64,000 nt of DNA from contig OZ024743.1 in NCBI GenBank assembly GCA_964016885.1, forward strand, positions 195,300,001 to 195,364,000, in the 5' to 3' direction. This DNA comes from Eledone cirrhosa. Lineage: Eukaryota. The notes under the pieces were generated by a model that saw nothing but the letters and a program-made list of their open reading frames with translations, was not told the DNA's origin and made no database searches. A program made the translations under genes and the position numbers. This document shows positions 16,881 to 59,035 of the stretch, one piece after another; position 1 is the first letter of the stretch; the number at the start of each line of letters is the position of its first letter.

Positions 16881-16922
16881 ATAATAATAATAATAATAAT
16901 TATTATTATTGTTATTGTTATT

Positions 16923-17930
16923 CCTTGAATCTCAGTCATTGATGTTGGTTAACTGGAAAGTCCGTTGGATTGAATATCAAGCCACTACCTGCAGCCTCAG
17001 ATATTCAGGACGTATCGGAGGGTTCTTGCTGTTCCAAGCAAGCATGCCTTTTGAAGCGTTCCAAAAAGCGTGAAGGGGCCGATTTTCTTTAACCATCCCT
17101 GGAAACTTTTGGAGATAGTCCCCAGTGCGCCTATGACAATCGGGATCACTTTGACTTCATGGCAGTTCCAGATCCTTTTCACCTCCCACTTTAGGTCCTG
17201 GTATCGGTTAATTTTCTCCCTCTCCTTCTCTTGCACTCTCGTGTCGAACGGGCAGGCCACATCCACAATCAGACACGATCTTTTTTCTTTGTCCACAACC
17301 ACCAGGTCAGGTCTATTGTGTTCCAGTTTCTTGTCCGTCTGTATCCTAAAATCCCACAGCATCTTCACCTGATCGTTCTCCATCGCCGCCTCTGGCTTAT
17401 GCTCATACCATTTCTCAGAATATGGTAAATTGTTTACTTTGCCCAGGTGCCAGTGGATCACCCTGCCCATCACATCATGTCTCCAGCCCTTATAGTGGGT
17501 CTGGGCTAGGTGTTTACACTCGGACACAATGTGAGCCACAGTCTCCTCTCTCTCTCCACAGATCCTGCACAGTGGGCTAGCCTCCTCCTTGTAGATATGG
17601 TGCTTCAACCACTTCGTTTTGAGGGCCTGCTCCTGCGCAGCCATTAGCATTCCTTCTGTAGCCTTTTTGAGGTCTCCTCTTCTCAACCAGTTCCATGTCT
17701 GTGGATCTCTAAATTCAGTTTTCTCAAAGAAGGTACTATGAAGGGATTTTCCCTTAAGGCTGCTCTTCCTCCTTGATGTTATTTCCTCCTTGGACATCCC
17801 CTGGCCTACTGTCCCCTCCTTCAGTACAGTTCTGAGCATTGGCTCCTTACTATAGGTCACGTATTTGTATAGGTTGTTTTTCTCCATCTGAACACAGTCC
17901 TCTATGCTGATAAGACCTCTTCCACCCTCA
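16923..17930 (-). mobile_element. R4/Dong-like family A copy A3, 5'-truncated (~1 kb)
   Basis: Intact C-terminal zinc knuckle/RLE frame ending LRYVLNI; (TAA)n on both sides. Confidence 0.95.
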
Positions 17931-17966
<36 letters not shown>

Positions 17967-17978
17967 GTTATTGTTATT

Positions 17979-20900
17979 CCTTGAATCTCAGTCATTGATG
18001 TTGGTTAACTGGAAAGTCCGTTGGATTGAATATCAAGCCACTACCTGCAGCCTCAGATATTCAGGACGTATCGGAGGGTTCTTGCCGTTCCAAGCAAGCA
18101 TGCCTTTTGAAGCGTTCCAAAAAGCGTGAAGGGGCCGATTTTCTTTAACCATCCATGGAAACCTTTGGAGATAGTCCCCAGTGCGCCTATGACAATCGGG
18201 ATCACTTTGACTTCATGGCATTCCAAATCCTTTTCACCTCCCACTTTAGGTCCTGGTATCGGTTAATTTTCTCCCTCTCCTTCTCTTGCACTCTCGTGTC
18301 GAACGGGCAGGCCACATCCACAATCAGGCACGATCTTTTTTCTTTGTCCACAACCACCAGGTCAGGTCTATTGTGTTCCAGTTTTTTGTCCGTCTGTATC
18401 CTAAAATCCCACAGCACCTTCACCTGACTGTTCTCCATCACCGCCTCTGGCCTATGCTCATACCATTTCTCAGAATGTGGTAGATTGTTTACTTTGCACA
18501 GGTGCCAGTGGATCACCCTGCCCATTACATCGTGTCTCCAGCCCTTATAGTGGGTCTGGGCTAGGTGTTTACACTCGGACACAATGTGAGCCACAGTCTC
18601 CTCTCTCTCTCCACAGATCCTGCACAGTGGGCTAGCCTCCTCCTTGTAGATATGGTGCTTCAACCACTTCGTTTTGAGGGCCTGCTCCTGCGCAGCCATT
18701 AGCATTCCTTCTGTAGCCTTTTTGAGGTCTCCTCTTCTCAACCAGTTCCATGTCTGTGGATCTCTAAATTCAGTTTTCTCAAAGAAGGTACTATGGAGGG
18801 ATTTTCCCTTAAGGCTGCTCTTCCTCCTTGATGTTATTTCCTCCTTGGGTATACCCTGGCCTACTGTCCCCTCCTTCAGTACAGCTCTGAGCATTGGCTC
18901 CTTACTATAGGTCACGTATTTGTATAGGTTGTTTTTCTCCATCTGAACACAGTCCTCTATGCTGATAAGACCTCTTCCACCCTCAGATCTCCTTAGGTAG
19001 AGTCTATCGACATCACTCCTCTTGTGGAACATGTTGTAGATAGTCAATAGCTTCCTAGTCTTCCTATCCATTTCTTTTTGTTCAGCAACATTCCATCTCA
19101 GAATTCCCGCACTGTACCTAATAATAGACACAGCTCGGGAATTTACTGCGCTTATGGCATTTCTGCTGTTCAGATGTGACTTCAATACGCTCCTTACTCT
19201 CCGAATGTATTCAGTTCTTAACAATTCCTTCATTTTTTTGTTCTTTATGCCATCAGCCTCCAGAACGCCCAAATACTTGTATCCTTCCTCAGAGTCAATT
19301 TCCTTTATCATCTCACCTGTTGGTATCTGGATCCCGTTACTTCTGCTCAACCTACCCCTCCTCATCACAATGACTCCACATTTACCAATACCAAACTGCA
19401 TACATATATCACTGCTGAAAATACGGACAGTGTCAACAAGCACATCCAACTCCTTCTCACTTTTCCCGAAGAGCTTAAGATCGTCCATGAAGAGGAGGTG
19501 ATTGATGGTAAGCTCTCCCCTTCCCAACTTGTATCCTGCTCTCACTTTTCGCAGCATAATGGTCAAGGGCATCAGGGCAAGGACAAACAACAGAGGGGAC
19601 AGGCTATCTCCCTGGAAGATACCTCTCTTGATCTTCACGCTTCCCAAGGATACTCCAGTTGATGTCAACTCTGTCTCCCAGGAGCCCATACTCCTGCCCA
19701 GCAACTGTCTGATGTTATCTGCCACCCTGAAGATCTCCAGGCTTTTGGTGATCCAGGAATGAGGCACCATGTCAAATGCCTTTCTGTAGTCTATCCATCC
19801 CATGGCAAGATCAGTGTGTCTCCTCCTGCAATTCCCCATTACCATCTTATCAATAAGCAACTGGTCCTTTGTACCACGTGACTTCTTTCGGCATCCTTTC
19901 TGTTCGTCCGGCAACAAGTTGTTTGTGTGGAGGTGATGGTAGATTTCCTCAGACACAATGCTCGTCAACAGTTTCCACATTACGGGCAGACATGTGATAG
20001 GTCTATAGTTGGTAACATCATTACCCTTGATTCGGTCTTTCATTATCAGAACTGTGGTACCTTTTGTCAACCACTCTGGCACCTCACCCGACACCAAGCA
20101 GTCATTGAACATGGCCGTCAGCTTCGGGTGGAGGGATGTTAAATGTTTAATCCAATACCCCTGCACACCATCTGGGCCTGGTGATTTCCAGTTGGTTAGT
20201 TTTTTGGCTTGCCCCTTAAGAGTTTCAACTGTGATACTCAAATCAGTCTGTTGCTGTGCCTGCTCACCGATCTCCCTCTGTACTGTCTCAATCCACCCTG
20301 CCTGGGCATTGTGTCTAACATCCTGCTCCCATATTCCTCTCCAGAATGTTTTAGCTTGTTCCGCCCCAGGGATCAAGTCGGTGCCTCTTTCTTTCCCCTC
20401 AAGCTGTCCAAACAGCATCTTCTGGTTGTTGTCGAACATGCGGTTCTGTTTATACTGACTGACTCTGTTCTCGTATCGCCTGATTTTGGCACTCTTTGCT
20501 ACAATGCGTTGCTTCAATTCCTCTATGATAATATTTAGCTTTTTACTCCTAGTTTTGTATTTTATTTCCAGTCTATTTTTAGTGCCTATGTTTTTTAGTG
20601 TCCCATTCAGTAGTGACTCAAGCTTTCCTATGTCATTTCTCATTTCCCCGATTTGCCCACTCAGTCGCTTCTTCCACCACGGCTCTGCTCTTTCTTGTCT
20701 GTTGTTTCCTCTCGCTTTTATACCAAGTAGTTTCCTCACCGTATTTGCTGTTGCTTTGAGGATATTGTTGCACTGGTGAAGACTCCTCGCCTCAAGGTAT
20801 GGGATGACTTTGTTTACCTTAGCTGTTGTTTCTTTTAACTTTTTCCTGTCTACAAATCTTAGGTTCATAGGTCTCCCACTATCATTGTTCAACTCATCTA

Positions 20901-21496
20901 CCACTAAATTTAGGATGTCAACTGAATCTTGTCCTAGCCCGTCAGCATTCATCTCCTCAGTGGCCGTATCTCTGTTCCAGGTATTATTTATCTCAGTATT
21001 CAGATCATTGTCTGCTTCGGGTGGTTCCTCCGCTCTCAGGACCTCCTCACCTTCATTTCCCGCCGGCTCGCTTGTCTGGCATACTACACCCGCCACCTCC
21101 AAGCCATTCTCTCTGCTCAGTTCCTCCAGTTCCAGCTCGCTTATCCACCCATTAGTTCTTATTACCCGAGCCTGCCCGGCCAATTTTTGTTCATCTAATT
21201 TAAATAAACCAATCTCGTTCCAGATGTTATGCATCCGTCTCCTGTAGCCCCTCTCCTTGGGGTTACTTTTCAGGTAGCATTGCATAACAGTTCTATTCAA
21301 TTCTTTCGTCCAGTTGGTTCTGGCCCCTTTCCTTCTTCTTCTTCCTCCAACATCAGCAGTATTTCGTTGACAGTCAGGTTCCTGCTGCTGAGCCAGGGGG
21401 CACCTGTTGGGTGAGAGTCTGTCACATGACGTTCTAGTCTCCATTTCACCGTTATTCGAACTGTTTATGTTCGATATTTAAACACTCTTATCGAGG

Positions 21497-21498
<2 letters not shown>
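17979..21498 (-). mobile_element. R4/Dong-like family A copy A4, near full-length coding region
   Basis: Begins ~55 nt upstream of the ATG, flanked by (TAA)n, and contains the whole ORF. Confidence 0.95.
18053..21444 (-). CDS. Single-ORF R4-clade protein (~1130 aa): Myb-like N-terminus, RT, CCHC knuckle, RLE; one 1-nt frameshift near 18219
   Basis: 1080-aa ORF with WTKELN..CYLKSNP..GYRRRM..W..EQKL N-terminus, NYRPITCL, WIDYRKAFD, QGDSLSP, FMDD, CxxC..H..C and RPD-D-EK..Y motifs. The last ~55 aa lie in another frame because one G is missing relative to the other copies. Confidence 0.9.
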
Positions 21499-21586
<88 letters not shown>

Positions 21587-21595
21587 ATTATTATT

Positions 21596-24500
21596 TGCAT
21601 TTATCTTGCTTTATGTTTATACGAGTTATCACCAAGTCACAACCAGTGACCTCAAGAGACAACAAGGTCCGCCATGTTCAAGAAAGAACATACATATTCA
21701 CACATGCATCCTTAGTGTTTAGACTTGTGATGTACTTATATTGACAGGATCTTCCTTAGTATATGGGCAGTTCCCATTAGTACTATCTTTTGTATTTCTC
21801 CTATACGTGGGTTTCCTGTGATTTGCGATAAGTAGTCGTTAGACCCCTTAGGTATCATTCCCAGAGCGCCTACAACCACTGGTATTGTTTTAGTTCTCAA
21901 TTTCCACATTTTTCCAATTTCTATCTCCAGGTCCTTATACTTGCTCAATTTTTCAAATGTTTTTATAGATACATTCTTGTCTATTGGAACAGACATATCA
22001 ATTAGCAGGCATACCCTCCTTTGAAAGTCCTTCAATATTATATCAGGTATATTTGCATCTATTTTTCGGTCTGTTTGGATGCTAAAGTTCCACAAGATTG
22101 AGATGTGATCTTTTTCAAGTATGGTAGGTGGTTGATGCTCCCACCAATTCTTTTGATGGGGCAGGTCAAAATGCTTACACATTATCCAATGTATGTATTG
22201 TGCAGCTCTGTCATGCCTGTTTAGGTATTCGGTTGGAGCTATAGGACTGAACATTGAAATTATATGGTCAATGGTCTCTGGTTGTTTTTTGCATACACGG
22301 CATAATGGGCTGCACCCTTTTTTTATTATGTTGGCTTGGTAATTTTTTGTTGGCAGACACTGATTTGTGCCGATATAATCAGTCCTTCAGTCTCCGATTT
22401 CAGTCCAGAGGATGCCAACCACTGATGGGTTAAAGTTTTGTCAACATCAGGATTGTTAGCTCGCTCTGGGTATTTTCCATACAGAGGCTTTTCTTGCCAT
22501 TTCTTAGCCAGTTTCTGTAGCAGTTCTTTCTTTGCAGTTACTTTTACCTGCTTTGCTTTTTCTGTGTTTTCCATTTCAGTAATAAATGGGACTTCTGAAA
22601 TTTGTAGTCCATTACTGTATCTTTGTGCATCTTTTGTAATGGAATATGATCTTTTGGTGCTTTCGTGTTTCAAAACGAGTTTGATCATCCAATCATGTGA
22701 TTCCCTTAGATATGTAGATAATCCAATTGTTGCAGTTTTCAACGCAATGTCTAACTGGATTAACCCACGTCCTCCTTCTTTCCTAAGGAGATATATTCTA
22801 TCTATATCTGCCTTAGGGTGATGCATTCTGTGCATGGTTAAGAATTTTCGAATTTTTGTATCGAGCCTACGGATCTCTGTGCTTGACCAGTTGATGACAT
22901 TGTAACTGTAGGTTACTACTGGTATGGCAAGCGTGTTTATGGCATCGATCCTATTCCTTGCATTCAATTCCGTTCTTAAGATTGCTCTTACTCTGCGGTA
23001 ACATTCCTTCCTTATCCTTTCCCTCATTGTCGAGTGCTTGATTCCGTCTCCTTCACAAACACCTAGATATTTGTAAGTTTTTTCTTGATCAAGTTCTCTT
23101 ATCACGTTCCCCCGATCAAGATTAATGTCTGAACTCTTCAGCAGCTTTCCTCTGGTGAGCGTTGCTTTGGCGCATTTATCTAGTCCAAACTCCGTGTTAA
23201 TGTCATCACTGAACTGCTTCACAGTGGATAATAGCCCTTGCAATTGTTCATCATTTTTTGCAAATAGTTTCAGGTCATCCATGTAGAACAGGTGATTAAT
23301 GGTTTTGTCATAGACTTTATATCCATGTTTTGTTTCATTGAGCATTTTACTTAATGGTATAAGTGCGATCCAGAATAAAAGCGGTGATAAAGAGTCACCC
23401 TGAAAAATTCCACAATTAATATTAACTTCTCCAGCTTCCAGTGATTTTGTTTCACTATTCAAAAGAAGTGTCGTTTTCCATGTCTTCATACTGAATGACA
23501 AAAACCTCCTGACAACGGGGGATACTTTGAAAATCTCTAAACATTTTTCAATCCAACTGTGTGGCAAACTATCAAATGCTTTTTTATAATCTATCCAAGC
23601 AATCGACAGATTTTTGTGTCTATTATGACAATCTTCCAGTATCATTTTGTTAACCAGAAGCTGATCCTTACAGCCATATGAGCCTCGTTTACACCCTTTC
23701 TGCTCAATAGGAAATAGGTCATTTGTTATCAGGTGGTCATATGTGTATTCAGTTAGGACTGATGTTAAAATTTTATACATTGTGGTCAAGCAAGTTATCG
23801 TTCTGTAATTTTTGGGATTGTTTGTCTCATCATTCTTCGGAAGCAGGAATGCAATGCCGTTAACTAGCCATGAAGGTATCTTTTCTGGCTCCTTAACTAT
23901 TTCATTGAGAAGTTGGGCTAACAGCTCATGAGACTCTGTGAAGGCATTTATCCAAAAGTTTTGTATTTTGTCTTTTCCTGGGGATTTCCATTTGCTAGTT
24001 TTTCTTAGAGCCAAGCGCAACTGTTCAACTGTTATATTTTCCCATGTCTGTTCTTCAAGTTGAGCTGTATCTGTCATTTGTCTGTCTATCCATGGGGCAT
24101 GTATGTTATGAACTTTTTCTTCGGCCCAGATCTTTTCCCAGAATTCTTGCACTTCCTCCTTGGGTGGTATTGATTTAGCAGTTATTGTTGTCTTACCAAT
24201 TTTTCTGTAGAAGTTTCTTTGGTTGTTTTTGAACATATTATTGTCCTTATAGAATCTAGATCGTTTTTCAAAGCGCCTTATACGAGCAGCTTTGGCCGAC
24301 ACTTTTTGCTTGATTATTTCTATCAGCATGTCTATGTCACATGTTGATTTTATACTGTACTTTTTTTTCAATTTTCTAAGTTTAGTTTGTTTAACATGTT
24401 CACCTACTTTATAGTTTGTTAAAATTTCTATGTCAGATCGGAGAAGGTTAAATTTGGCGATTGATGTTCTCTTGCCAAGTAGATTTCTTGTGGGAATTCC

Positions 24501-26506
24501 TTTGTTTTTTCATCTTCACTCCACATAAGTGAGTGGTGACTTTAGCCGATGCATAATAGAGATGATTTAAATCAGTAATGTTTAGTTTGTTTGTGATGAT
24601 AATGTTTTTGAGAATTATGTTAGTCTTGTGTATTATCTTTTGGTTCTGTTTGGAGTTCTGGATCTTAGGGAGGGTGTCTCGTTGCCCCATGTCAGATTCT
24701 TTCATTTTCATCCATTCGATCATAATTTCATCCTTCAAGTTGGCAAGTTCATTCTCATTCATTTCCTTATCATTTACGATCTCATTATTTTCATTTGAGT
24801 TTCATCCTGAGCATGCACTCCCTCCACTTTTCGATCCTTTCTTTAATTTGTTCTGTTGCCAGTGATTCCGCCCCAACCCTGGAATTCGAAGTGTTACAGT
24901 TTACCTCGTTTTCACTGACACATGTTTCATTTTCCCTTCGCTGACTTTGTGCTAATAGCTTGATCTGATCAATTTCTATATCAGTTAGTAACTTTTTCTT
25001 ACAATATTTCTTCGTATATTGGCTAGTTTGTTACTGTCAATATAGCCTCTGTTTTCGGGATGTTTCTTTTTCCAGTTGATATATGTCTGTTCTGTATTCG
25101 ATGTATTTGATGGGTAGTACATGGCAGTTATGAAAGCCTCAAGGACTTCTTTATTATCTTCCCTTGACCATTTTTCTCTCTTTAGATTTCTTGGTGGTGA
25201 GCATGGAGGGCCAACAGTAGGAGTATTCCGGTTATGGGAGGTCTCCAGCTCCGAAGTGATGGGAAGGTTTGAACCATTAGCTGATTTTTCGACCCCAGTC
25301 TGGTTCCTCTCTGAGCGACGCGGCCCTTTTTTACCCGGGTGACGGCCGATCCGGTATGAGATTTTATCATTAGACATTTACTTTATTTTTTCGCGTTTTA
25401 TCCTTATCCGCCAAGGGGTAATCATTTCGTGTTACCACTTCTAGAACGAGTGTCAACCAAGACTAGAGGGGTCGTTCTCCCCTAGAGACTCGGCTATTCC
25501 CCGCCGGCCGCCATCCCGGTATTTCTTGGTCACGGGGTTTTCTTTTTGTTGTTTTTTTTAAAATTGTTATTATCATGAGTGGTTCCTTAATGTGAGCATT
25601 GCGTGGCTTAAGAATGAAATTATTAATAATTGTCTCCACTCCAGGCACAAGGCCAGCAATCACCCAGTGCATTACAATAATATAATATACTTTTTGTTGT
25701 AGTTGGCTGTTATTGTTGTTGGCTATGTCGGTGGTGGTGCCGGGGCTTTTTATATTGTTGGTGAGGAAGGGGTGAGCCAGCAGTCCCATATTTGTTGATA
25801 TTGTCGTTTGGCCTTGGCCAGGTCACTAAGTCAATCTATTTATATCTTTTGCTAGCCTCTCCCTTGTCTAGTGATACCTTCCCCTTTCTCTCTCAAGTTA
25901 ACAGGGGAATAGTGGTGGTAGCATTGAAGGAGTGGTGGCGGCGGGGAGATGTGGGAGACAGTAGCGGCGGTATCGATACTGAGACAGTGGTGGTGGTGAT
26001 GTCGATACCGAGGCAGTGGTGGTGGTGACGTGATCGTATTACTGTAGTGATGGTGTTGTAGCGGTGGTAGCAATGAAAGAGTGGTGGCGGCGGTGATGGG
26101 ATAGTGGTGGTAATGATGGCAGTAGTGAGTGGTGGTGGTGAAATTGCCGTTACCTGGCTGTTGTGTTTAGTGTACACAGAGAGGTGATGGGGTAGGTGTT
26201 GTATCTAGTTTCTGGTGTTGTTTGGCTGTTCTATATAGCGTAGACAGAGGAGGGGGGGGGGTTCTTCTTCCATTTATAGCCATTTTCTTTTTTGAATATA
26301 CAATGTACAATACAAAGTTGAATATTTGAATATTTGAGCCTTATAACAATATATCTTGGGTCCGAATTTTTTGGGACTCAAGCGGGATGCTTTACGTAGC
26401 ATTTGTACTAAGAGTTGTTATTTCACAAATGATTTAAATATGTTAAAAATTCAAAACTTACGGGAGCGATTTCATGACCTTCCGTCACCTCGTGCGTCTT
26501 CTTCCC

Positions 26507-26507
<1 letters not shown>
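21596..26507 (-). mobile_element. R4/Dong-like family B copy B1, apparently full length, ORF broken (25377 to 21736)
   Basis: ORF pieces 25377-24985, 24762-24448, 24371-22326 (RT: WIDYKKAFD, QGDSLSP, FYMDDLKL) and 22254-21736 (RHD..HW..PD..D..EK..KY RLE). Protein is clearly divergent from family A; (TAA)n on both ends. Confidence 0.92.
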
Positions 26508-26564
<57 letters not shown>

Positions 26565-26714
26565 TATTATTATTGAATGCTATGGTTGACGGAGCGATTT
26601 CATGACCTTCCGTCACCTCGTGCGACTTCTTCCCTTATTATTATTATTATTATTGAATGCTATGGTTGACGGAGCGATTTCATGACCTTCCGTCACCTCG
26701 TGCGTCTTCTTCCC

Positions 26715-26767
<53 letters not shown>

Positions 26768-26787
26768 GAATGCTATGGTTGACGGAG
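26461..26787. repeat. Triplicated junction unit: ~47 bp + (TAT)n + ~21 bp
   Basis: GGAGCGATTTCATGACCTTCCGTCACCTCGTGCGTCTTCTTCCCT-(TAT)n-TGAATGCTATGGTTGAC occurs three times with different TAT lengths. Confidence 0.95.
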
Positions 26788-26983
26788 GCTCGGCTCTGTA
26801 AGGTATTGTAAATTTTGACCGCTATAACAATTGTAAATTGTTTAAAACTTTAACCAACTTGTAGACAAAAACACCCTCCTCCTCGTGAGAGGGGTCTTTC
26901 TGCCCGTTATTTAGCCCTTCGGGGTTAAATAACCGTTTATTGGGGTTTTGTGCCCAATATTCATTTTAAACAAAAAAAACAAC

Positions 26984-29062
26984 ATGGCTATGATGAATTT
27001 TCATACGTCACTCCCACTCATTCCGTCTTCTTCTTCCTCAATCGTCACTACAGCAGAGAGAAGATTGTCTCTCTCCCTCCCTTCTCTTTCGCAAGCGACG
27101 CCAGAAAAGAAAAATCACGTGCAAAGCGTGCAAGATTTCTCCACGACGACGAAAAAGGTGTGCGGGAAATACGAAAACCCATTTCATTCGTCTGAGGTCA
27201 GGAATAATAGCAGTAGCAGCCGTAATAACAGCAGCAGTAGCAACAGTGACAAGGAAAACAACAGCAGCAGCATAAACAACAACAGCATTAGCAGCAACAG
27301 CAACAACAACAGCAGCAACAGCAACAACAACAACAAACACAGCAACAGCGGCGGCGGCGGCGGCAGTCGTAGTACCTGCAGCAACAACAAAAGTAACAGC
27401 AGCTCTGACGACAACAATAACAACAGCAGCAAAGAAAAACTAATCTCGTTTGCAGGTATCGCAAAGAACCTTGAAACCATCCTCATAACAAATGAGGAAT
27501 TAGAGGAAGCGAAGAAGATGGTGACGAAAACCGGACACCGAGCAATCTGCAAAGCAGCCGAACAATTTTTCGAAATCCAACAGCACTGTACGGTCACGTA
27601 CCGTCCAGTAAGTACAAAATCCCGTAGGGTTCAAAGAGCCACAGAGGCTCAAATACAAAAAGCCTTAGGGTCCGTGTGGCAGCGGAAAACGCACATCACC
27701 CGAGGCAAGAAATATGCCACCGTAGACGTGCTTTTTGCCACACCCCAGGAGGCAAAGGCTCAATCCGTAGTGACCCTAAGGAGTGAGGAAATGGTGTTGG
27801 TGCCCTCCTACTGCGGGCAAAAAATTGTGAGGGTCAAACTGACCCACGTCCCCCCCCCCCCGGGATGGCTCCTTCTTGGCTGGCCGCGTCTGTCCTCGTC
27901 GGAATCGACGACAAAACAACTGTACTGCAAGTACAGAAAAAAGTAAGAGAAGATTGGGTCGGCACCTCCATTGAGATGTTAATCCAAACCAACCAGGAGT
28001 GCATCGAAGCTATCCTGGATGTGATAGACTTCGATAACGGCACTCAACTGCCCATAAGTGTTGAGGGCAAACGCCCGAAATGCTTTCGCTGTGGATCAAA
28101 GACTCACCTCAGGGCCTTCTGCAACGAGAAGACCCTGAGAAAGGAGAACCCCCCCCCCCCTCTTTCCGAAACCGGCTCCACGGCTACCAGCAACAGGACA
28201 AGCGGCAACCAGGAACGATAGGTCCGTGGCACCCCACGCCACGGAAATCAAATACAGCAGCAGCAGTGGAAGAATTAACAACAACAACAGTAATACCAAA
28301 TGCAGCTGCAACAGAGACTCCAGTGCAAACATCACCAACAACAACAAGTGAAAGAGTGGAGCTGGTACCCCTCCCCGACCTCACAGAATCAGACATGGAG
28401 TGTGAGGTGGGAGAGGGATGACAAAATGTCGTAAGAAGGCACAAACGCAGAAGCAGCCCATCGTCGCCTTCGAAAAGGGAGGAAAGAAATGAAAAAAGGG
28501 TAAAGGCTACTGCAAAGAGACTCTCAGCAGCAACACCACCAACACCATCACCACCCACACTAGCACTACCATCACCATCGGCGACAATCCAACCGCCAAC
28601 AACAACAACACCTTCAACACTACCACCACAAGCACCAACATCGCAAACACAACAACAAAACACACATACCCAGCAACAACAAGAAAATAGCAGAACCACA
28701 ACCCCCCGGGGAAAAACAAATGCACGGCAATAAATACACACAACTAGAAACTAATGACTTACATAATTGAACACACAGACATTTCACAACACGACTACAT
28801 AATACCAGCACCAATCAAAACGCCAACTAACATAAGACTGCTAAAAATAGCACAGAAACAATACACAAACATTAAAACGAAATTCCCCAACGCAGTTGGT
28901 GATTTCAGGGACGTAGGAGGAACTATCAATCGAAGAGTATATTCGGATATACTCATAGAAGAGCCGACGACCCACCGAAGGGACGATTCAACGGTCCCTT
29001 CACCAGACGATCAAGTGAAAAGGGATGTAAAAACCATCCCTCCTCTACGAAAAGTACGGTAA
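26984..29062 (+). pseudogene. Tx1-like ORF1 (gag-like nucleic-acid-binding protein), frameshifted
   Basis: S/N low-complexity tract, CFRCGSKTHLRAFC (CCHC) knuckle and T/P-rich tail. Frame breaks at poly-C runs near 27850 and 28150. Confidence 0.75.
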
Positions 29063-29097
29063 GTGGTCTTTCCCATCTTTTCCACTCTATTCTAAAC

Positions 29098-32000
29098 ATG
29101 ACCTCACTCAGAATAGGCAGCATAAATGCGCGTGACTTGGGGTCGTCATGGAAGCAGGGTCACCTGCTCAACGACCTCAGGTCACTAAACATAGATGTAG
29201 TGGCCATCAGCGAGACCAGAATCTCTGAAGCACGGGCCTTCGCACCGATCTTCGGCGGCTACGATGTGTACGCATCTCCCAGCCGTCCTGGATCGGGGGG
29301 AGGGAGGAGTTGCTGTGCTTTTTCGGAGAGGTTTGGATCTCGCCATACGGGCCATCTTCCTGGACCCAGAGGGTAAGCTGGTGGTGCTGGACGTGACCAG
29401 CGGAGACGGGCAAGCTTTCAGGCTAGTGGCCGTCTATGCCCCGACAGGAGCAGGGCGGCCTGATTTCTTCCGGCGTCTGGAGACCTTTCTTGGAACGTTC
29501 CGCTCTTTAGTGTTAGTGGGAGACTGAAACGGGATCTTAGATGCACGCTGGGACTGTGTGGGATTAGCGGATAGGGGAGAAGGGTGCAAGAGCCTCACCA
29601 ACCTGCTCAGGCGTTTTGAACTGTCTGACAGGTACCGATTGGATTTCCCGAATGTACCAATGTGGACTTGAACAAATCGCATAGAGTCATCCAGATCATA
29701 TCTAGATAGAGTAATTTGTAGGGAAATAGATAGGTCTAGCATAGGCTGTCCACAATTGTAGATAGTCAGCTACACGGACCACAAATTCGTGATATGTGTT
29801 CTTGAATTAGATACGCTTCATAGACGAGGACCCGGCTACTGGAAGCTAAACGTGTCCTTACCAGCGCGCAAGGCCTACAGAGACCGGATTAGCGAACTAG
29901 TTAAGCGGGCGTTGACGGGGGCCATCGTCAACAACAAGTGGTGGTTTGCTCTGAAAAGAGCGATTAGAATAGAATCCATTAGGTTTAGTAAGGCTTTAGC
30001 AATAGAGAAAAATAGAGCAGAGGGAGAACTAGTTAGAAAATTAGACGAGGTGCTTAGCAAAGGCACTGCGACCGACGTGCTTGCGGCGAAATTGGCCCTT
30101 GACCAATTCCTCAATGCAAAGCACGAAGGCTGCGTTGTCAGAGCAAGGGTGCGTCCTCTCAGACACGAGGGGACGAAAGCCGTTCAATGGGCCCGAGTGG
30201 CGGAGGCGCGTCGTGGCAACACATCCACGATCCGGTCTTTGGTGGACCACGACGGACGCATGCTACTCGATCCCGTGTAAATGTGTGAAGCTTTTCAGCG
30301 ACACTTCGCTCAGCTGTTCGGGGGCAGCGGTGAGCCGGGTCAAGGGATGGACTTTAGTGTCTACCTCGACGGACTGCTGCGGCTCTCGGCCACTGAGGCG
30401 CAGTGTTGCGAAAAGCCGATAACAGCCGCTGAAGTAAGGGAGGCAATGACTGGCTGCACAAGGGGTAAATCGCCTGGTTTGGATGGTCTGCCCTATGAAC
30501 TTTACGTACGTACAGATGCCAGACTTGTTCGGAGGCCTCTTGGCGGACGTCTACTACAACTGGCAATAGAACGGGAGAATTCCCATTTCTGTGAGTCGAG
30601 GAGCGGTGGCACTGATGAGAAAGGATCCGAACAAGGGGGATAACATAGATAACTTCCGGCCCATAACTCTGCTAAACACAGAGTTCAAGATTTTGGCCAA
30701 GGTGCTAGCAAAGAGGTTGGTGCTTGTCGTTGGTGGTCTGGTGGGAGGGGCGCAGACATGCGCCATTCCCGACAGATCCATCCACGACAACCTCCACCTC
30801 ATGCGATACATCGTAGAGAGGGTAGCTAGGGAACCTGGCACGGGTGGGTCCTTGATCAATTTAGACCAGTCGAAAGCTATCGATAGGGTCGACAATAGTT
30901 ATCCTAGCGGCAGTCCTGAGGGCGGCTGGCTTTGGGCCCGTCTTCAGAGGATGGATCGCTGTGGTGAGAGTGAACGGTCACCTTTCGGAACCGTTCAACA
31001 TCATGCGCTCGGTCCGCCAAGGATGTCCCCTCTCGTCCCTATTGTACGTATTGACTCTCGAGCCATTACTGCATAAATTGGAGACGTTGAGGGGGATCCC
31101 GCGCGAACTAGGATGCGGAAGATCCGTGTCAGCATATGCCGACGAGTCACCGTAGTGGTGTCGAACGCCAAACACATCGAAGCGATCGGCACTACACTAA
31201 GAGAATACGAAGCGGTGACAGGAGCAATGATCAACCAGGAAAAGTCAGTGGGCCTGCAGCTCGGCACCTGGAGAGGCAGGTCCATGCCGTCCAACAGCTT
31301 CGTCGGGCGCTGGACAGACGGACCGATTAAATTGCTAGGGGTCTGGTTCGGTCCAGACCTCCAGACGGACAAAAACTGGGACGAGGTGACGAGCAGGGTG
31401 GCTTCTCTCACCCAGAAATGGGCCGAGAGGAAGCTATCCCTGAAAGGTCGAGCGGAGGTGGCTAACGCGTACATCGCGTCCGTCATCTACTACCGCCTGA
31501 CCGTCGTACCTTGTCCTAAGCCCCGCCTGACTGCGCTGGAGCGTTTGCTCTTTCGCTTTTTGTGGAAGGGACGCGCTCCGATTGTCTGGCGGTCCATCTG
31601 CTGTCAACACCCGCTACGTGGAGGGCTGGGAATGCCGTGGCTGATGATGTGCAGACACGCGCTCAGGCTACGACATCTCCACCTCTTCCTCGACGGTGAT
31701 CAGGTGTGGTCGCCGTTTGCTCGACACGTATTTCCCAAGCTCGTTTCCTTGACGGAGCTGCAGTCCTGGGTCAAGCGAAGACCGAGAGGGACCGCTTGGA
31801 GACTGGAATGTCTTCAGGCGCTCACAGCCCTCCACCTATCGGGCAATGTGATCGGTGGAAACTCCACCTTGGCGTTCTATAGGGGATTAGTGGAGGGGAA
31901 GAGCGACGACGTACTTGGAGAAACTCTAGGCGTCGACAAAAATCAACTAGCCAATCTCTTCGGAAGGACTTTCGGACCGGGGCCTATGGACAACTTCCAG

Positions 32001-32500
32001 AAATCCCTGGCCTGGCAGTGCTACCGGGGTGCTTTGCCAGTTCGGGATAAACTTTACAGGCATGGAGGTGCCGTCAGCCGGGCATGTCCGAGATGCGCGC
32101 AGGGCGACGAACCGTCCTGCACGCACTCGTCCAGTGTCCGAGCATTGCTGACTTGTGGGTTTATGTCGAACACCTGCTGTCACGTGTAGGACGGATCCAG
32201 CTATCAGCTGAGTCCATCGTGAGGATTGCCCCGCCCTCTTCCTTTAGCCGGGAAGGGCAGGCAGTTTTTATCTGTCTGGTGGCCATGGCTAAAGAGATAG
32301 TATGGTGGACACGTTTGAAAGTTCTGAAGACGAGCACTTACCTCTTCGGTGATGCCCTGATTAACTTTTTCAAATTTCATCTGAAAAGGAAAATCAGGGT
32401 AGAGAGGGAAGTGCTCTCTTCCCAGCAGTTTGTTGAAAGATGGGTGAGAGAAGCAAGTATGGCCCGAATGAATGGGCCTTCTCTGAGTATGTGTCTGTAA
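29098..32500 (+). pseudogene. Tx1-like ORF2 (apurinic-like endonuclease + RT + C-terminal zinc finger), several stops and frameshifts
   Basis: MTSLRIGSINARDL, ISETR, VYAP, LVGD, YLDR, TDH, GPGYWKLN, KSPGLDGLP, NFRPITLLN, RQGCPLS, AYAD, CPRC..E...H...C. Confidence 0.9.
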
Positions 32501-32742
32501 ATTAAAGGTGGAAAACTGGGAGAGGGCACTTGCCCTGGTGGTCAGGGCCACTGTGGTCTTTTAATGGGCTTTCTCCACAAATGTCCCTCGGAAGTCTCCC
32601 CCCTATTGGGCAATTTTTCTTCGTTATTTTATTTCATCCTCTGTTTTTTTACACGCAGAAATGCCCATTTGAACCGTCCTGTATTGTCCTGTACTGTCCT
32701 TAATGTCTACTTTATGTAAACCCTTGTGGTTAATAAAGAAAA

Positions 32743-32803
<61 letters not shown>

Positions 32804-32804
<1 letters not shown>

Positions 32805-33410
32805 CTTGAATCTCAGTCATTGATGTTAGTTAACTGGAAAGTCCGTAGGAATGAATATCAAGCCACTACCTGCAGCCTCAGATATTCAGGACGTATCGGA
32901 GGGTTCTTGCTGTTCCCAGCAGGCATGCCTTTTGAAGCGTTCCAAAAAGCGTGAAGGGGCCGATTTTCTTTAATCATCCCTGGAAACTTTTGGAGATAGT
33001 CCCCAGTGCGCCTATGACAATCAGGATCACTTTGACTTCATGGCAGTTCCAAATCCTTTTTACCTCCCACTTTAAGTCCTGGTATCGGTTAATTTTCTCC
33101 CTCTCCTTCTCCTGCACTCTCGTGTCGAATGGGCAGGCCACATCCACAATCAGACACGATCTTTTTTCTTTGTCCACAACCACCAGGTCAGGTCTATTGT
33201 GTTCCAGTTTCTTGTCCGTCTGTATCCTAAAATCCCACAGCATCTTCACCTGATCGTTCTCCATCGCCGCCTCTGGCTTATGCTCATACCATTTCTCAGA
33301 ATGTGGTAAATTGTTTACTTTGCCCAGGTGCCAGTGGATCACCCTGCCCATCACATCATGTCTCCAGCCCTTATAGTGGGTCTGGGCTAGGTGTTTACAC
33401 TCGGATACAA
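32804..33410 (-). mobile_element. Family A copy A5: 3' (non-inverted) part of the inverted insertion
   Basis: Encodes VSECKHL through the RLE to the 3' UTR and (TAA)n tail. Joins directly to the + strand segment with no microsatellite between. Confidence 0.92.
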
Positions 33411-36400
33411 GTTTTGAATTTTTAACATACTTAAATCTTTTGTGAAATAGCAACTCTTAGTACAAATGCTACGTAAAGCATCCGGCTTGAGCCCCCAAAA
33501 AATTCGGACCCAAAATATATTGTTATAAGGCTCAAATATTCAAATATTCAACTTTGTATTGTACATTGTATATTCAAAAAAGAAAATGGCTATAAATGGA
33601 AGAAGAAGAACCCCCCCCCCTCCTCTGTCTACACTATATAGAACAGCTAAACAACACCAATCTTACCAACACCAGAAGCTAGATACACCACCTACCCCAT
33701 CACCTCTCTGTGTACACTAAACACAACAGCCAGATAACGGCAATTTCACCACCACCACAACCAATCTCAACATAATAATGATAATAATAAATACTATTAT
33801 TATTGTCCCAAGTTTTAAAAAAATATTTAATCCCAACATTAAGGGAATTTATGTCAACACATATACGCGACTAACCCCATAGATTCACCGAACGGACATC
33901 AGTAACGACAACGCCGCCCATCCATCATTACTACCACTATCCCATCACCGCCGCCACCACTCCTTCATTGCTACCACCGCTACAACATCATCACTACAGT
34001 AATACGATCACATCACCACCACCACTGCCTCAGTATCGACATCACCACCACCACTGTCTCAGTATCGCTACCGCCGCTATTCTCTCCCATTGCTTCCTGC
34101 TAGTTGCTGCCACCACATTATAGAATTCCTACTAAAAAAGAGGAAGGCATCAACATATATAGATAGACTCAAAAGAAAAAAGAAAAAACAAACACCAAAA
34201 CCAAAGCAGCACAGCAACAATAGCAAAAAAAGAGAAAAACAAAAACAAAAAAATAAAACGTAAAGAAAATAAGAATGAAGAGGGAAACAAGCGGACGGAC
34301 AGAGAAGAGAAGGGAAAAACTAAGTCAGACATTCGAACACTACATTACAATGAAACTTATGCTTATTCATTTTTTGGGTTTTTTCTGCCTGTGTTTGTTT
34401 GTTTATTTGTGTTCGTCTACAGCGTGGTGATAATGCCACACAAGAGCCAAGTGGAGCGGCGCAACCACCGGAGACGGTGAATCCACCGGAGACGGTGAAT
34501 CCACAGATGGTTATGTAACCATACATTCGCCAATCCTCGATAAGAGTGTTTAAATATCGAACCTAAACAGTTCGAATAACGCTGAAGTGGAGACTAGAAC
34601 GTCATGTGACAGACTCTCACCCAACAGGTGCTCCCTGGCTCAGCAGCAGGAACCTGACTCTCAACCAAATACTGCTGGTGTCGGAGGAAGAAGAAGAAGG
34701 AAAGGGACCAGAACCAACTGGACGAAAGAATTGAATAGAACTGTTATGCAATGTTACCTGAAAAGTAACCCCAAGGAGAGGGGCTATAGGAGACGGATGC
34801 ATAACATCTGGAACGAGATTGGTCTATTTAAATTAGATGAATAAAAATTGGCCGGGCAGGCTCGGGTAATAAGAACTAATGGTTGAATAAGCGAGCTGGA
34901 ACTGGAGGAACTGAGCAGAGAGATTAGCTTGGAGATGGAGGGTGGAGTATGCCAGGCAAACGAGCCAGTGGGAAATGAAGGTGAAGAGGTCGAGAGAACG
35001 GAGGAACCACCCGAAGCAGACAATGATCTGAATACTGAGATAAATAATACCTGGAACAGAGATACGGCCACTGAGGAGATGAATGATTTACGGGCTAGGA
35101 CAAGATTCGGTTGACATCCTAAATTTAGTGGTAGATGAATTGAACAATGATAGTGGGAGACCTATGAACCTAAGATTTGTAGACAGGAAAAAGTTAAAAG
35201 AAACAACAGCTAAGGTAAACAAAGTCATCCCATACCTTGAGGCGAGGAGCCTTCACCAGTGCAACAATATCCTCAAAGCAACAGCAAATACGGTGAGGAA
35301 ACTACTTGGTATAAAAGCGAGAAGAAACAACAGACAAGAAAGAGCAGAGCCTTGGTGAAAGAAACGACTGAGTGGTCAAATCAGGGAAATGAGAAATTAC
35401 ATTGGAAAGCTTGAGTCACTACTGAATGGGACACTAAAAAACATAGGCACTAAAAATAGACTGAAAATAAAGTACAAAACTAGGAGGAAAAAGCTAAATA
35501 TTATCATAGAGGAACTGAAGCAACGCATTGTAGCAAAGAGTGCAAAAATCAGGCGATACGAGAACAGAGTCAGTCAGTATAAACAGAACCGCATGTTCGA
35601 CAACAACCAGAAGATGCTGTTTGGACAACTTGAGGGGAAAGAAAGAGTCAACGACTTGATCCCTGAGGCGGAACAAACTAAAACATTCTGGAGAGGAATA
35701 TGGGAGCAGGATGTTAGACATAATGACCAGGCAGGGTGGATTGAGACAGTACAGAGGAAGATCGGTGAGCAGGCACACCAACAAACTGATTTGAGTATCA
35801 CAGTTGAAACTCTTAAGGGGCAGGCCAAAAAACTAACCAAACTGGAAATCACCAGACCTAGATGGTGTGCAGGGGTATTGGATTAAAAATTTAACATCCC
35901 TCCACCCGAAGCTGACAACCATGTTCAATGACTGCTTGATGTCAGGTGAGGTACCAGAGTGGTTGACAAAAGGTACCACAGTTCTGATAATGAAAGACCG
36001 AATCAAGGGTAATGATGTTACCAACTATAGACCTATCACATGTCTGTCCTTAATATGGAAACTGTTGACGAGCATTGTGTCTGAGGAAATCTACCATCAC
36101 ATGCACACAAACAACTTGTTACCGGACGTACAGAAAGGATGCCGAAAGAAGTCACGTGGTAAAAAGGACCAGTTACTTATTGATAAGATGGTAATGGGGA
36201 ATTGCAGGAGGAGACACACTGATCTTGCCATGGGATGGATAGACTACAGAAAGGCATTTGACATGGTGCCTCATTCTTGGATCACCAAAAGCCTGGAGAT
36301 CTTCAAGGTGGCAGATAACATCAGACAGTTGCTGGGCAGGAGTATGAGGTCCTGGAAAACAGAGTTGACATCCACTGGAGAATCCTTGGGAAGCGTGAAG

Positions 36401-37425
36401 ATCAAGAGAGGTATCTTCCAGGGAGATAGCCTGTCCCCTCTGTTGTTTGTCCTTGCCCTGATGCCCCTGACCATTATGCTGCGAAAAGTGAGAGCAGGAT
36501 ACAAGTTGGGAAATGGAGAGCTTACCATCAATAACCTCCTCTTCATGGACGATCTTAAGCTCTTCGGGAAGAGTGAGAAGGGGTTGGATGTGCTTGTTGA
36601 CACTGTCCGTATTTTCAGCAGTGATATATGTATGCAGTTTGCTATTAGTAAATGTGGAGTCATTGTGAAGAGGAGGGGTAGGTTGAGCAGAAGTAACGGA
36701 ATCCAGATACCAACAGGTGAGATGATAAAGGAAATTGACTCTGAGGAAGGATACAAGTATTTGGGCGTTCTGGAGGCTGATGGCATAAAGAACAAAAAAA
36801 TGAAGGAATTGTTAAGAACTGAATACATTCGGAGAGTAAGGAGCGTATTGAAGTCACATCTGAACAGCAGAAATGCCATAAGCGCAGTAAATTCCCGAGC
36901 TGTGTCTATTATTAGGTACAGTGCGGGAATTCTGAGATGGAATGTTGCTGAACAAAAAGAAATGGATAGGAAGACTAGGAAGCTATTGTCTATCTACAAC
37001 ATGTTCCACAAGAGGAGTGATGTCGATAGACTCTACCTAAGGAGATCTGAGGGTGGAAGAGGTCTTATCAGCATAGAGAACTGTGTTCAGATTGAGAAAA
37101 ACAACCTACACAAATACGTGACTGATAGTAAGGAGCCAATGCTCAGAACTGTACTGAAGGAGGGGACAATAGGCCAGGGGATGTCCAAGGAGGAAATAAC
37201 ATCGAGGAGAAAGAGCAGCCTTCAGGAAAAATCCCTTCATAGTACCTTCTTTGAGAAAACTGAATTTAGAGATCCACAGACATGGAACTGGTTGAGAAGA
37301 GGAAACCTCAAAAAGGCTACAGTAGGAATGTTAATGGCTGCGCAGGAGCAGGCCCTCAAAACGAAGTGGTTGAAACACCATATTTACAAGGAGGAGGCTA
37401 GCCCACTGTGCAGGATCTGTGGAGA
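33409..37425 (+). mobile_element. Family A copy A5: inverted 5' part (1.2-kb leader + decayed ORF up to CRICGE)
   Basis: Leader 33409-34586; ORF from 34587 (GTG in place of ATG) with stops and frameshifts; RT in 35867-37425; ends abruptly at (ATT)n. Confidence 0.92.
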
Positions 37426-37936: not shown

Positions 37937-40900
37937 CCTTGAATCTCAGTTATTGATGTTGGTTAACTGGAAAGTCCGTTGGAATGAATATCAAGCCACT
38001 ACCTGCAGCCTCAGATATTCAGGACGTATCGGAGGGTTCTTGCTGTTCCCAGCAAGCATGCCTTTTGAAGCGTTCCAAAAAGCGTGAAGGGGCCGATTTT
38101 CTTTAACCATCCCTGGAAACTTTTTGTGATAGTCCCCAGTGCGCCTATGACAGTCGGATCACTTTGACTTCATGGCAGTTCCAAATCCTTTTCACCTCCC
38201 ACTTTACGTCATGGTATCGGTTAATTTTCTTCCTCTCCTTCTCTTGCACTCTCGTGTCGAAAGGGCAGGCCACATCCACAATCAGACACGATCTTTTTTC
38301 TTTGTCCACAACCACCAGGTCAGGTCTATTGTGTTCCAGTTTTTTGTCCGTCTGTATCCTAAAATCCCACAGCACCTTCACCTGATTGTTCTCCATCACC
38401 GCCTCTGGCCTATGCACATACCATTTCTCAGAATCTGGTAAATTGTTTACTTTGCACAGGTGCCAGTGAATCACCCTGCCCATCACATCGTGTCTCCAGC
38501 CCTTATAGTGGGTCTGGGCTAGGTGTTTACACTCGGACACAATGTGAGCCACAGTCTCCTCTCTCTCTCCACAGATCCTGCACAGTGGGCTAGCCTCCTC
38601 CTTGTAAATATGGTGCTTCAACCACTTCGTTTTGAGGGCCTGCTCCTGCGCAGCCATTAGCATTCCTTCTGTAGCCGTTTTGAGGTCTCCTCTTCTCAAC
38701 CAGTTCCATGTCTGTGGATCTCTAAATTCAGTTTTCTCAAAGAAGGTACTATGAAGGGATTTTCCCTTAAGGCTGCTCTTCCTCCTTGATGTTATTTCCT
38801 CCTTGGACATCCCCTGGCCTACTGTCCCCTCCTTCAGTACAGTTCTGAGCATTGGCTCCTTACTATAGGTCACGTATTTGTATAGGTTGTTTTTCTCCAT
38901 CTGAACACAGTCCTCTATGCTGATAAGATCTCTTCCACCCTCAGATCTCCTTAGGTAGAGTCTATCGACATCACTCCTCTTGTGGAACATGTTGTAGATA
39001 GTCAATAGCTTCCTAGTCTTCCTATCCATTTCTTTTTGTTCAGCAACATTCCATCTCAGAATTCCCGCACTGTACCTAATAATAGACACAGCTCGGGAAT
39101 TTACTGCGCTTATGGCATTTCTGCTGTTCAGATGTGACTTCAATACGCTCCTTACTCTCCGAATGTATTCAGTTCTTAACAATTCCTTCATTTTTTTGTT
39201 CTTTATGCCATCAGCCTCCAGAACGCCCAAATACTTGTATCCTTCCTCAGAGTCAATTTCCTTTATCATCTCACCTGTTGGTATCTGGATCCCGTTACTT
39301 CTGCTCAACCTACCCCTCCTCATCTCAATGACTCCACATTTACTAATAGCAAACTGCATACATATATCACTGCTGAAAATACGGACAGTGTCAACAAGCA
39401 CATCCAACTCCTTCTCACCTTTCCCGAAGAGCTTAAGATCGTCCATGAAGAGGAGGGGATTGATGGTAAGCTCTCCCTTTCCCAACTTGTATCCTGCTCT
39501 CACTTTTCGCAGCATAATGGTCAAGGGCATCAGGGCAAGGACAAACAACAGAGGGGACAGGCTATCTCCCTGGAAGATACCTCTCTTGATCTTCACGCTT
39601 CCCAAGGATACTCCAGTTGATGTCAACTCTGTCTCCCAGGACCCCATACTCCTGCCCAGCAACTGTCTGATGTTATCTGCCACCCTGAAGATCTCCAGAC
39701 TTTTGGTGATCCAAGAATGAGGCACCATGTCAAATGCCTTTCTGTAGTCTATCCATCCCATTGCAAGATCAGTGTGTCTCCTCCTGAAATTCCCCATTAC
39801 CATCTTATCAATAAGTAACTGGTCCTTTGTACCACGTGACTTCTTTCGGCATCCTTTCTGTTCGTCCGGTAACAAGTTGTTTGTGTGGAGGTGATGGTAG
39901 ATTTCCTCAAACACAATGCTCGTCAACAGTTTCCACATTACGGACAGACATGTGATAGGTCTATAGTTGGTAACATCAATACTCTTGATTCGGTCTTTCA
40001 TTATCAGAACTGTGGTACCTTTTGTCAACCACTCTGGCACCTCACCCGACACCAAGCAGTCATTGAACATGGTCGTCAGCTTCGGGTGGAGGGATGTTAA
40101 ATTTTTAATCCAATACCCCTGCACACCATCTGGGCCTGGTGATTTCCAGTTGGTTAGTTTTTTGGCCTGCCCCTTAAGAGTTTCAACTGTGATACTCAAA
40201 TCAGTTTGTTGGTGTGCCTGCTCACCGATCTCCCTCTGTACTGTCTCAATCCACCCTGCCTGGACATTATGTCTAACATCCTGCTCCCATATTCCTCTCC
40301 AGAATGTTTTAGTTTGCTCCGCCCCATCGATCAAGTCGTTGCCTCTTTCTTTCCCCTCAAGCTGTCCAAACAGCATCTTCTGGTTGTTGTCGAACATGCG
40401 GTTCTGTTTATACTGACTGACTCTGTTCTCGTATCGCCTGATTTTTGCACTCTTTGCTACAATGCGTTGCTTCAGTTCCTCTATGATAATATTTAGCTTT
40501 TTCCTCCTAGTTTTGTACTTTATTTCCAGTCTATTTTTAGTGCCTATGTTTTTTAGTGTCCCATTCAGTAGTGACTCAAGCTTTCCTATGTCATTTCTCA
40601 TTTCCCCGATTTGACCACTCAGTCGTTTCTTCCACCACGGCTCTGCTCTTTCTTGTCTGTTGTTTCCTCTCGCTTTTATACCAAGTAGTTTCCTCACCGT
40701 ATTCGCTGTTGCTTTGAGGATATTGTTGCACTGGTGAAGGCTCCTCGCCTCAAGGTATGGGATGACTTTGTTTACCTTAGCTGTTGTTTCTTTTAACTTT
40801 TTCCTGTCTACAAATCTTAGGTTCATAGATCTCCCACTATCATTGTTCAATTCATCTACCACTAAATTTAGGATGTCAACCGAATCTTTCCCTAGCCCGT

Positions 40901-41092
40901 CAGCATTCATCTCCTCAGTGGCCGTATCTCTGTTCCAGGTATTATTTATCTCAGAATTCAGATCATTGTCTGCTTCCGGTGGTTCCTCCGTTCTCAGGAC
41001 CTCTTCACCTTAATTTCCCACTGGCTCGCTTGTCTGGCATACTACACCCGCCATCTCCAAGCCATTCTCTCTGCTCAGTTCCTCCAGTTCCA
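37937..41092 (-). mobile_element. Family A copy A7, 5'-truncated, with 921-aa ORF (40910-38145)
   Basis: Complete RT, knuckle and most of the RLE in one frame; frameshift near 38156; (TAA)n flanks. Confidence 0.95.
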
Positions 41093-41131
41093 ATTATTAT
41101 TATTATTATTATTATTATTGTTATCGTTATT

Positions 41132-42199
41132 CCTTGAATCTCAGTCATTGATGTTGGTTAACTGGAAAGTCCGTTGGATTGAATATCAAGCCACTACCTG
41201 CAGCCTCAGATATTCAGGACGTATCGGAGGGTTCTTGCCGTTCCAAGCAAGCATGCCTTTTGAAGCGTTCCAAAAAGCGTGAAGGGGCCGATTTTCTTTA
41301 ACCATCCCTGGAAACCTTTGGAGATAGTCCCCAGTGCGCCTATGACAATCGGGATCACTTTGACTTCATGGCAGTTCCAAATCCTTTTCACCTCCCACTT
41401 TAGGTCCTGGTATCGGTTAATTTTCTCCCTCTCCTTCTCTTGCACTCTCGTGTCGAACGGGCAGGCCACATCCACAATCAGGCACGATCATTGTCTGCTT
41501 CCGGTGGTTCCTCCGTTCTCAGGACCTCTTCACCTTCATTTCCCGCCGGCTCGCTTGTCTGGCATACTACACCCGCCATCTCCAAGCCATTCTCTCTGCT
41601 CAGTTCCTCCAGTTCCAGCTCGCTTATCCACCCATTAGTTCTTATTACCCGAGCCTGCCCGGCCAATTTTTGTTCATCTAATTTAAATAAACCAATCTCG
41701 TTCCAGATGTTATGCATCCGTCTCCTGTAGCCCCTCTCCTTGGGGTTACTTTTCAGGTAGCATTGCATAACAGTTCTATTCAATTCTTTCGTCCAGTTGG
41801 TTCTGGCCCCTTTCCTTCTTCTTCTTCCTCCAACATCAGCAGTATTTGGTTGACAGTCAGGTTCCTGCTGCTGAGCCAGGGGGCACCTGTTGGGTGAGAG
41901 TCTGTCACATGACGTTCTAGTCTCCATTTCACCGTTATTCGAACTGTTTATGTTCGATATTTAAACACTCTTATCGAGGATTGGCGAATGTATGTTTACA
42001 TAGCCATCTGTGGATCCGCCATCCCACTTGGCCCTTGTGTGGCATTATCACCACGCTGTATACGGACACACATAAACAAACAAACACACGGGCAGAAAGG
42101 GCCCCAAAAATGAATAAGCATAAGTTTCATTGTAATGTAGTATTCGAATGTCTGACTTAGTTTTTGTTTTTTAAGTTTTACTTTTTCCCCCCTCTTCTC

Positions 42200-55584: not shown

Positions 55585-59035
<3,451 letters not shown>

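Follow-up and report, generated by a model that had tools for sequence, protein, structure and literature searches.

We analyzed a window of 64,000 nucleotides from the 3.0-Gb genome of Eledone cirrhosa (assembly GCA_964016885.1, contig OZ024743.1, positions 195,300,001 to 195,364,000, forward strand), in which two retrotransposons of divergent Dong-like families, here called A and B, carry closely similar 5′ leaders. The B element, B1, is a full-length Dong-like element on the minus strand (21596..26506) flanked on both sides by (TAA)n arrays (21497-21595 and 26507-26574), and its open reading frame (ORF) is broken by stops and frameshifts. Its sharp 5′ end, GGGAAG, adjoins the array at 26506. 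Reading downstream on the minus strand, the head of the shared leader forms a 45-nt putative first exon (26462..26506) and is followed by a predicted 175-nt GT-AG leader intron (26287..26461) with a GTAAG donor and an AAAAG acceptor. Head and intron are part of an A-type leader of the a1 kind (25952..26506), which we attribute to the latest A-to-B transfer and a subsequent internal deletion. Next come a remnant of the previous B leader, which shows homology to the leaders of old A copies (25820..25951, bounds approximate), and a B-specific 5′ untranslated region (UTR; 25378..25819) that reaches the ATG of the ORF at 25377. The B-specific UTR contains a piece of an abundant short repeat (25625-25675). 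Younger B subfamilies have this piece fixed in their UTR, and the full-length repeat is often inserted in A and B leaders.

The A copy lies in two parts, an inverted 5′ part on the plus strand (33409..37425) and a 3′ part on the minus strand (32804..33410) that ends in (TAA)n at 32744-32803. The arrangement resembles twin priming, and the inversion junction shows a loss of about 23 nt between the priming points and a 2-nt AA microhomology. Such 5′ inversions are known mainly from L1, and the element here is of the restriction-like-endonuclease (RLE) kind. The shared leader occupies 33409..34089 on the plus strand, beginning at leader position +48, as the inverted copy is without the first 47 nt. 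Because the leader sits at the inversion junction, it was present on the A RNA template, as an earlier note on this sequence had proposed. Further downstream, a T-rich tract followed by CAG at 34420-34422 is a candidate distal splice acceptor (34360..34422, plus strand).

Masked self-BLAST and alignment indicated two matching blocks, one of 91% identity over 350 columns (26129-26459 minus against 33409-33758 plus, E 4e-120) and one of 95% over 168 columns (25952-26119 minus against 33922-34089 plus, E 8e-72). The near identity claimed in the earlier note therefore holds, and so does the shared module itself, but the module starts at 26506, 47 nt beyond the boundary of 26460 given there. The extra segment of about 165 nt that separates the blocks in the A copy (about 33759-33921) is indeed missing from B1; it is not a novelty of A, since homologues occur in B's older leaders, and it was lost in one A sub-lineage before the last transfer. 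Nor are the downstream UTRs as different as described, because the B UTR next to the module is homologous to old A leaders.

The proteins of the two families are strongly divergent, as the earlier note had stated, with 40% identity over 676 amino acids (aa). A midpoint-rooted protein tree comprised 49 rows, namely A, B, two fragments of a third family, C, and 45 homologues selected among 225, all of these relatives being unnamed. Its deepest split separated A from B, with an SH-aLRT (Shimodaira-Hasegawa-like approximate likelihood ratio test) of 100 for either side. The nearest outside protein was 63% identical for A and 65% for B. Family C lies on B's side of the tree and has a leader of about 1.9 kb that is unrelated to the A/B leader. 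Within the C leader (L176, L190, L193, L220 and L223), an internal GAAGAAG...GTAAGTTTT motif with a layout like that of the A/B head occurs in a duplicated unit. Both A and B have a single ORF with RVT_1, no endonuclease family in a Pfam scan and no APE domain, and a 5′ UTR of 1.0-1.4 kb with splice sites. Intact 1130-aa ORFs were found in several recent A copies outside the window, and no intact B ORF was found among the fetched copies. A C-terminal CCHC knuckle and a PD..D motif, which we take to be that of a restriction-like nuclease, were seen by eye in the A protein and in the 3′ frames of B1. The 3′ ends of the elements continue into (TAA)n. One A copy (L085:1440-1500, oriented) was found in a single TAATAA inside another A ORF, and a long array is therefore not required for insertion. 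A single ORF, reverse transcriptase (RT), CCHC knuckle, PD..D and TAA-repeat insertion are likewise described for the Dong/R4 clade of Bombyx mori (PMC3774820, PMC4640811), and in Octopus vulgaris Dong-R4 has been reported to be active (PMC13282606). By these features A and B would be RLE non-long-terminal-repeat elements of the Dong-like/R4 clade; we write Dong-like, since the homologues include no named Dong or R4 protein.

Genome wide, the head motif of the leader had 1862 exact matches (control, 0), and an older head variant had 327 more. A positional sample comprised 89 heads on contig C1 (90 fetched of 100 listed places, with L136 left out). Of these heads, 61 led into A and 24 into B, and 4 belonged to leaders interrupted by other, later insertions; TAA or GAA arrays lay directly upstream of 84. 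Thirty older-variant heads led to A in 27 cases and to B in 1, the other 2 being unclassified A-type leaders. When 30 loci were instead chosen by the B-specific UTR, the leader was A-like (90-97%) at 17 and more diverged (74-78% by local BLAST) at 11, and the remaining 2 were 5′-truncated. Among 30 loci chosen by an A-specific motif, 15 had the head, 12 were scored as truncated at the array (two of which in fact bear the older head) and 3 were other, and none carried a different leader. A stand-alone leader with its own tail, as in a short interspersed element, was found at 0/89 and 0/30 heads, and the separate noncoding element that the earlier note thought both families might recruit is not borne out, as 85/89 positional heads run into A or B. 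A strict GGGAAG start was present in 59/89 heads, and most others had a substitution or lacked 2-15 nt. Internal deletions and duplications were frequent at the CAC-rich repeats of the leader. Searches in other organisms returned six metagenome matches, all chance 19-20-mers. We conclude that A and B elements both begin with this leader as their 5′ end.

The leader tree was discordant with the ORF tree of A and B. On three leader trees A and B interleaved, with 8, 7 and 6 changes of family label, of which 3, 3 and 4, respectively, were forced by well-supported branches, and a single clade of B leaders was rejected (approximately unbiased test, p-AU 0.0001; 0.002 without a1-type rows). The comparison of module and RT trees that the earlier note had called for thus finds interleaved leaders on proteins that lie across the deepest split. 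At least three exchanges, in both directions, can be read from these trees and from chimeric junctions. The oldest, E1, reads as an ancient exchange between A and B, as L295, the oldest B leader in the sample, resembles old A leaders at 72-80%; A is weakly favored as its source by the presence of the leader in old A and its absence in C. The next, E2, reads as a transfer of about 700 nt from B to A. The leaders of the delta and gamma A subfamilies are B-type from position 1 to about 700 (90-95% identical to B copy L117) and continue with the old-A leader from +172 onward, across an out-of-register junction with AA microhomology, and in B the same sequence continues collinearly. Moreover, the leader changed by about 0.28 substitutions per site between old A and delta A and the ORF start by far less (internal branch, 0.03), a disparity that E2 explains. 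The older B copy L295, whose sequence runs collinearly with B leaders, falls on this long branch. The last, E3, reads as a transfer of about 600 nt from A to B after E2, in which the youngest B subfamilies acquired an A leader from position 1 to about 600 (93-98% identical to a1-type A) joined out of register, via AATT, to B's own leader from +370. Microhomology at the E2 and E3 junctions is 2-4 nt. The short leader form of B1 arose after E3 by later deletions between the CAC-rich repeats. The pair in the window is the product of E3, which means that much of the module they share passed from B into A and later returned. The recent exchange proposed in the earlier note was thus a repeated and bidirectional one, and "recent" applies only to its last step.

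Subfamilies were ordered by mean pairwise ORF distance, which in small samples was 0.064 for old, 0.069 for delta (3 copies), 0.039 for gamma, 0.025-0.035 for a1 and 0.013 for a2 in A, and 0.039 for delta, 0.011-0.031 for beta and 0.006-0.014 for a1-type in B. The sampled leader mosaics are amplified subfamilies, which argues against single dead copies. Within the first 25 nt, A and B both went from GGTAG through GGCGG to GACGG, and this identical three-step head change, together with L074, may reflect further exchanges. Two simpler histories were set aside. That A was always the donor is overturned by E2. A recent immigration of B has lost weight in view of three observations, namely that 1.2 Mb contained no B body below 90%, that its nearest outside protein is only 65% identical, and that L295 has an older B leader. 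We conclude that the leaders of A and B appear to have been exchanged repeatedly and reciprocally.

The leader has the layout of a short first exon, a GTAAG intron with its donor at +46, and AAAATGG after the acceptor. The longest invariant stretch in ten representative leaders is the donor, GCTCCCGTAAG; eight of the ten had been chosen by the donor motif itself, and two old A copies had not. Across the genome, 25 heads carried a base other than G after CCC, of which 21 were point changes and 4, representing three events, lost sequence exactly from the donor. Two of the losses (L161, 167 nt; L165, 168-169 nt) lie on different contigs, have different heads and end at the same AG, so that precisely the counterpart of the 175-nt B1 intron is gone. 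A rough expectation is 0.26 events at one position, with a probability of 0.002 for three or more, and the background is 3/89 leaders broken in the first 250 nt. Twelve further heads had G followed by a base other than T; one of them was rearranged with another repeat, and the other 11 showed small changes. The distal acceptor of A (CAG at 34420-34422 in the window) persists in almost every aligned A copy, including the old ones; a retrocopy spliced to it had 0 matches when one junction form was searched with 1 mismatch, and none was present among the 25 and 12 variant heads. A small ORF after the proximal acceptor was considered and rejected, as its frame is not preserved between subfamilies. 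Because precise GT-AG loss occurred in two independent retrocopies, we conclude from these sequences that the GTAAG donor was used in retrotransposed RNA.

One way in which such a leader could be transcribed is from a promoter of its own. The TATA-like motifs to which the earlier note pointed sit at 225-265 nt within the element, and old A copies have TACAAA in place of TATAAA; being internal and not conserved, they are unlikely to be a core promoter and are probably not the promoter. A hepatitis delta virus (HDV)-like ribozyme was found in 0/85 leaders at up to 1 mismatch and in 1/85 at 2 mismatches (shuffles, 2/40 and 9/40), Rfam scans found no ribozyme family, and a near-HDV pattern in the B-specific UTR was not above shuffles. 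Folding of the leader head was no better than that of shuffles (z 0.0 and +0.7). Elsewhere in A, segment 34420-34569 folds at z −2.7, but this copy bears an 18-nt tandem hairpin duplication. The sharp 5′ ends, the splicing and the lack of a detected ribozyme point to RNA polymerase II (Pol II) initiation near +1. The leader is thus likely to be the promoter of A and B, in place of the self-cutting RNA of silkworm Dong.

We consider it probable overall that A and B share one leader that was swapped repeatedly, with a promoter role and with template switching as the means. Under this account, transcription of both families would start at leader +1, and their common (TAA)n arrays and overlapping periods of activity would provide the opportunity for exchange. 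Template switching, or else truncated insertion or microhomology deletion, would join a foreign leader to the recipient, and selection for transcription would fix each chimera. Several observations weigh against parts of it. Spliced copies are rare (4 in about 1900 heads), the proximal AG is lost in 28/41 of the youngest A copies, and in the tandem pair L159/L160 the donor-precise loss stops 5 nt short of the AG of the nearest relatives; splicing at the proximal AG may be cryptic and selected against. No GT-AG joint occurred among the joints listed in contigs of four unlabelled runs (3 and 46 further joints), which is neutral evidence. The HDV descriptor was home-made and, with 20/20 on synthetic controls, was validated only on those. 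A broader version, to which we give rather less than even weight, is that A and B form one promoter gene pool on a common microsatellite target, in which a better spliceable Pol II leader passes both ways by template switching. Within that version, and just as tentatively, substitutions of a single base within the first 25 nt would also cross between families.

Given exchange, the route is somewhat more likely to have been at the RNA level. Each mapped junction attaches foreign 5′ sequence to a truncated leader of the recipient; the join is out of register, has brief microhomology, and accords better with template switching or truncated insertion than with homologous crossover. Exchange could instead have occurred in DNA, if neighboring A and B copies in the same orientation within (TAA)n underwent deletion or gene conversion and the fusion became a new master. 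Mixed tandems are common (an A 3′ end precedes the B head at 15/24 sites and a B 3′ end precedes the A head at 14/61), the CAC-rich repeats drive frequent internal changes in the leader, and a microhomology-mediated deletion yields the same junction as a template switch. Against this, both junctions are out of register, even though leader sequence of 75-85% homology could have supported an in-register crossover, and DNA-level recombination is said in PMC3600994 to have been discounted for L1 mosaics; we regard the DNA route as possible but rather unlikely.

Doubt may also attach to the promoter role, if A and B were cotranscribed from the host or an upstream element and the leader were an RNA-processing or stability module, such as an unrecognized ribozyme or a U1 site against premature termination. 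Silkworm Dong self-cleaves from a TAA cotranscript (PMC3774820), tandem arrays permit read-through, and the most conserved stretch is the donor, also in the old A copies found without the motif. The ribozyme and folding results above argue otherwise, as do the sharp ends and splicing of the leader, and we consider such a module unlikely. It is more improbable still that A and B each took the leader repeatedly from a third source, either a host first exon with its intron or an unsampled element. The layout of the leader resembles the 5′ end of a gene, and 5′ transduction of host first exons is known for L1 (bioRxiv 2025.02.02.635956); yet the 89 and 30 heads contained no third partner, and for each of the last two transfers both the donor and the recipient subfamily were found, 92-98% alike in the segment that moved. 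A third source could still be the ultimate origin of the leader. Finally, two further readings, the leader as an abundant stand-alone repeat and the pairing as a product of local rearrangement or misassembly, have only the rearranged state of the window locus in their favor and can be practically dismissed. Rather than rarely adjoining Dong ORFs, the leader led to A or B at 85/89 heads and was present at 28/30 B-UTR loci; both pairings recur on many contigs and are thus not limited to this locus, as the earlier note had thought conceivable, and a contig joint in an independent read set joins the leader to the B UTR across a B1-type junction. We conclude that the shared, repeatedly exchanged leader with a probable promoter role best fits these observations.

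Replacement of 5′ ends has been described in mouse L1, in which 5′ ends were recruited from other families in 11 replacements, with template switching among the proposed routes (Sookdeo et al. 2013, PMC3600994). Repeated replacement between families is common to both systems, but the mouse L1 partners are close subfamilies of essentially one lineage, whereas A and B are RLE lineages at 40% protein identity with reciprocal traffic in one homologous leader. In addition, that paper ties coexistence of mouse L1 lineages to nonhomologous promoters, whereas A and B persist side by side with a leader in common. The 5′ end of Bombyx mori Dong contains a self-cleaving HDV-like ribozyme (PMC3774820), unlike the A/B leaders as scanned here, whose UTR carries splice sites. 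L1 spliced integrated retrotransposed elements (SpIREs; Larson et al. 2018, PMC5860796) resemble the A/B leader in a conserved donor near the 5′ end and in rare retrocopies without an intron within the 5′ UTR. The L1 donor is perhaps retained through overlap with a promoter element, but SpIREs belong to a different clade, and the lower promoter activity of spliced copies was demonstrated for them. Pr77 of trypanosomatid L1Tc/ingi is likewise one 5′ module common to several retroposon families and acts as an internal promoter (PMC3383444); it is 77 nt long, doubles as an HDV-like ribozyme and has unspliced transcripts, in contrast to an A/B leader of 600-700 nt with mapped lateral swaps. Neither a reciprocal and repeated exchange of leaders between lineages so far apart nor a spliced leader in Dong-like elements turned up in our searches of the open-access literature.

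Transcription of RLE retrotransposons outside ribosomal DNA is poorly known, and the tested silkworm Dong relies on ribozyme cleavage. The A/B leader offers a concrete promoter candidate with a used splice donor, and the swaps offer an ordered natural series with mapped junctions. They suggest that regulatory modules of long interspersed elements (LINEs) can repeatedly cross 60% protein divergence, and coexistence on one leader challenges the L1-derived view that coexisting lineages need different promoters. If true, the gene-pool version would provide a route from ribozyme-dependent to self-transcribing elements. In repeat libraries, the 5′ ends of A and B are liable to cross-annotation.

Other features of the window surround these elements. 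A broken two-ORF LINE, unrelated and outside the leader, lies head-to-head with B1 (26768..32743, plus strand); it is Tx1/L1-like by eye, and its sole domain match is RT. This LINE occupies the same arrays in opposite orientation, is head-to-head with Dong heads at 9/89 sites (among them L033, L034, L086 and L208), and also has a GTAAG about 30 nt into its 5′ end. Between the two elements, an 80-bp tandem (26555-26734) combines the head of Dong with (TAA)n and roughly the first 20 nt of the opposite-strand LINE, and was apparently duplicated via CTCC(C)GT microhomology. Long series of co-oriented A copies, mostly 5′-truncated and with (TAA)n between them, occupy 11450-21496 and 37937-42165. 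Among the positional heads on C1, neighbors were skewed to the other family, with B heads following A 15 times and B twice and A heads following A 13 times and B 14 times (Fisher p 0.01, post hoc). Lastly, 51315-52415 and 56706-57805 form an inverted pair of GIY-YIG (Penelope-like) fragments, 99% identical, between (TA)n arrays.

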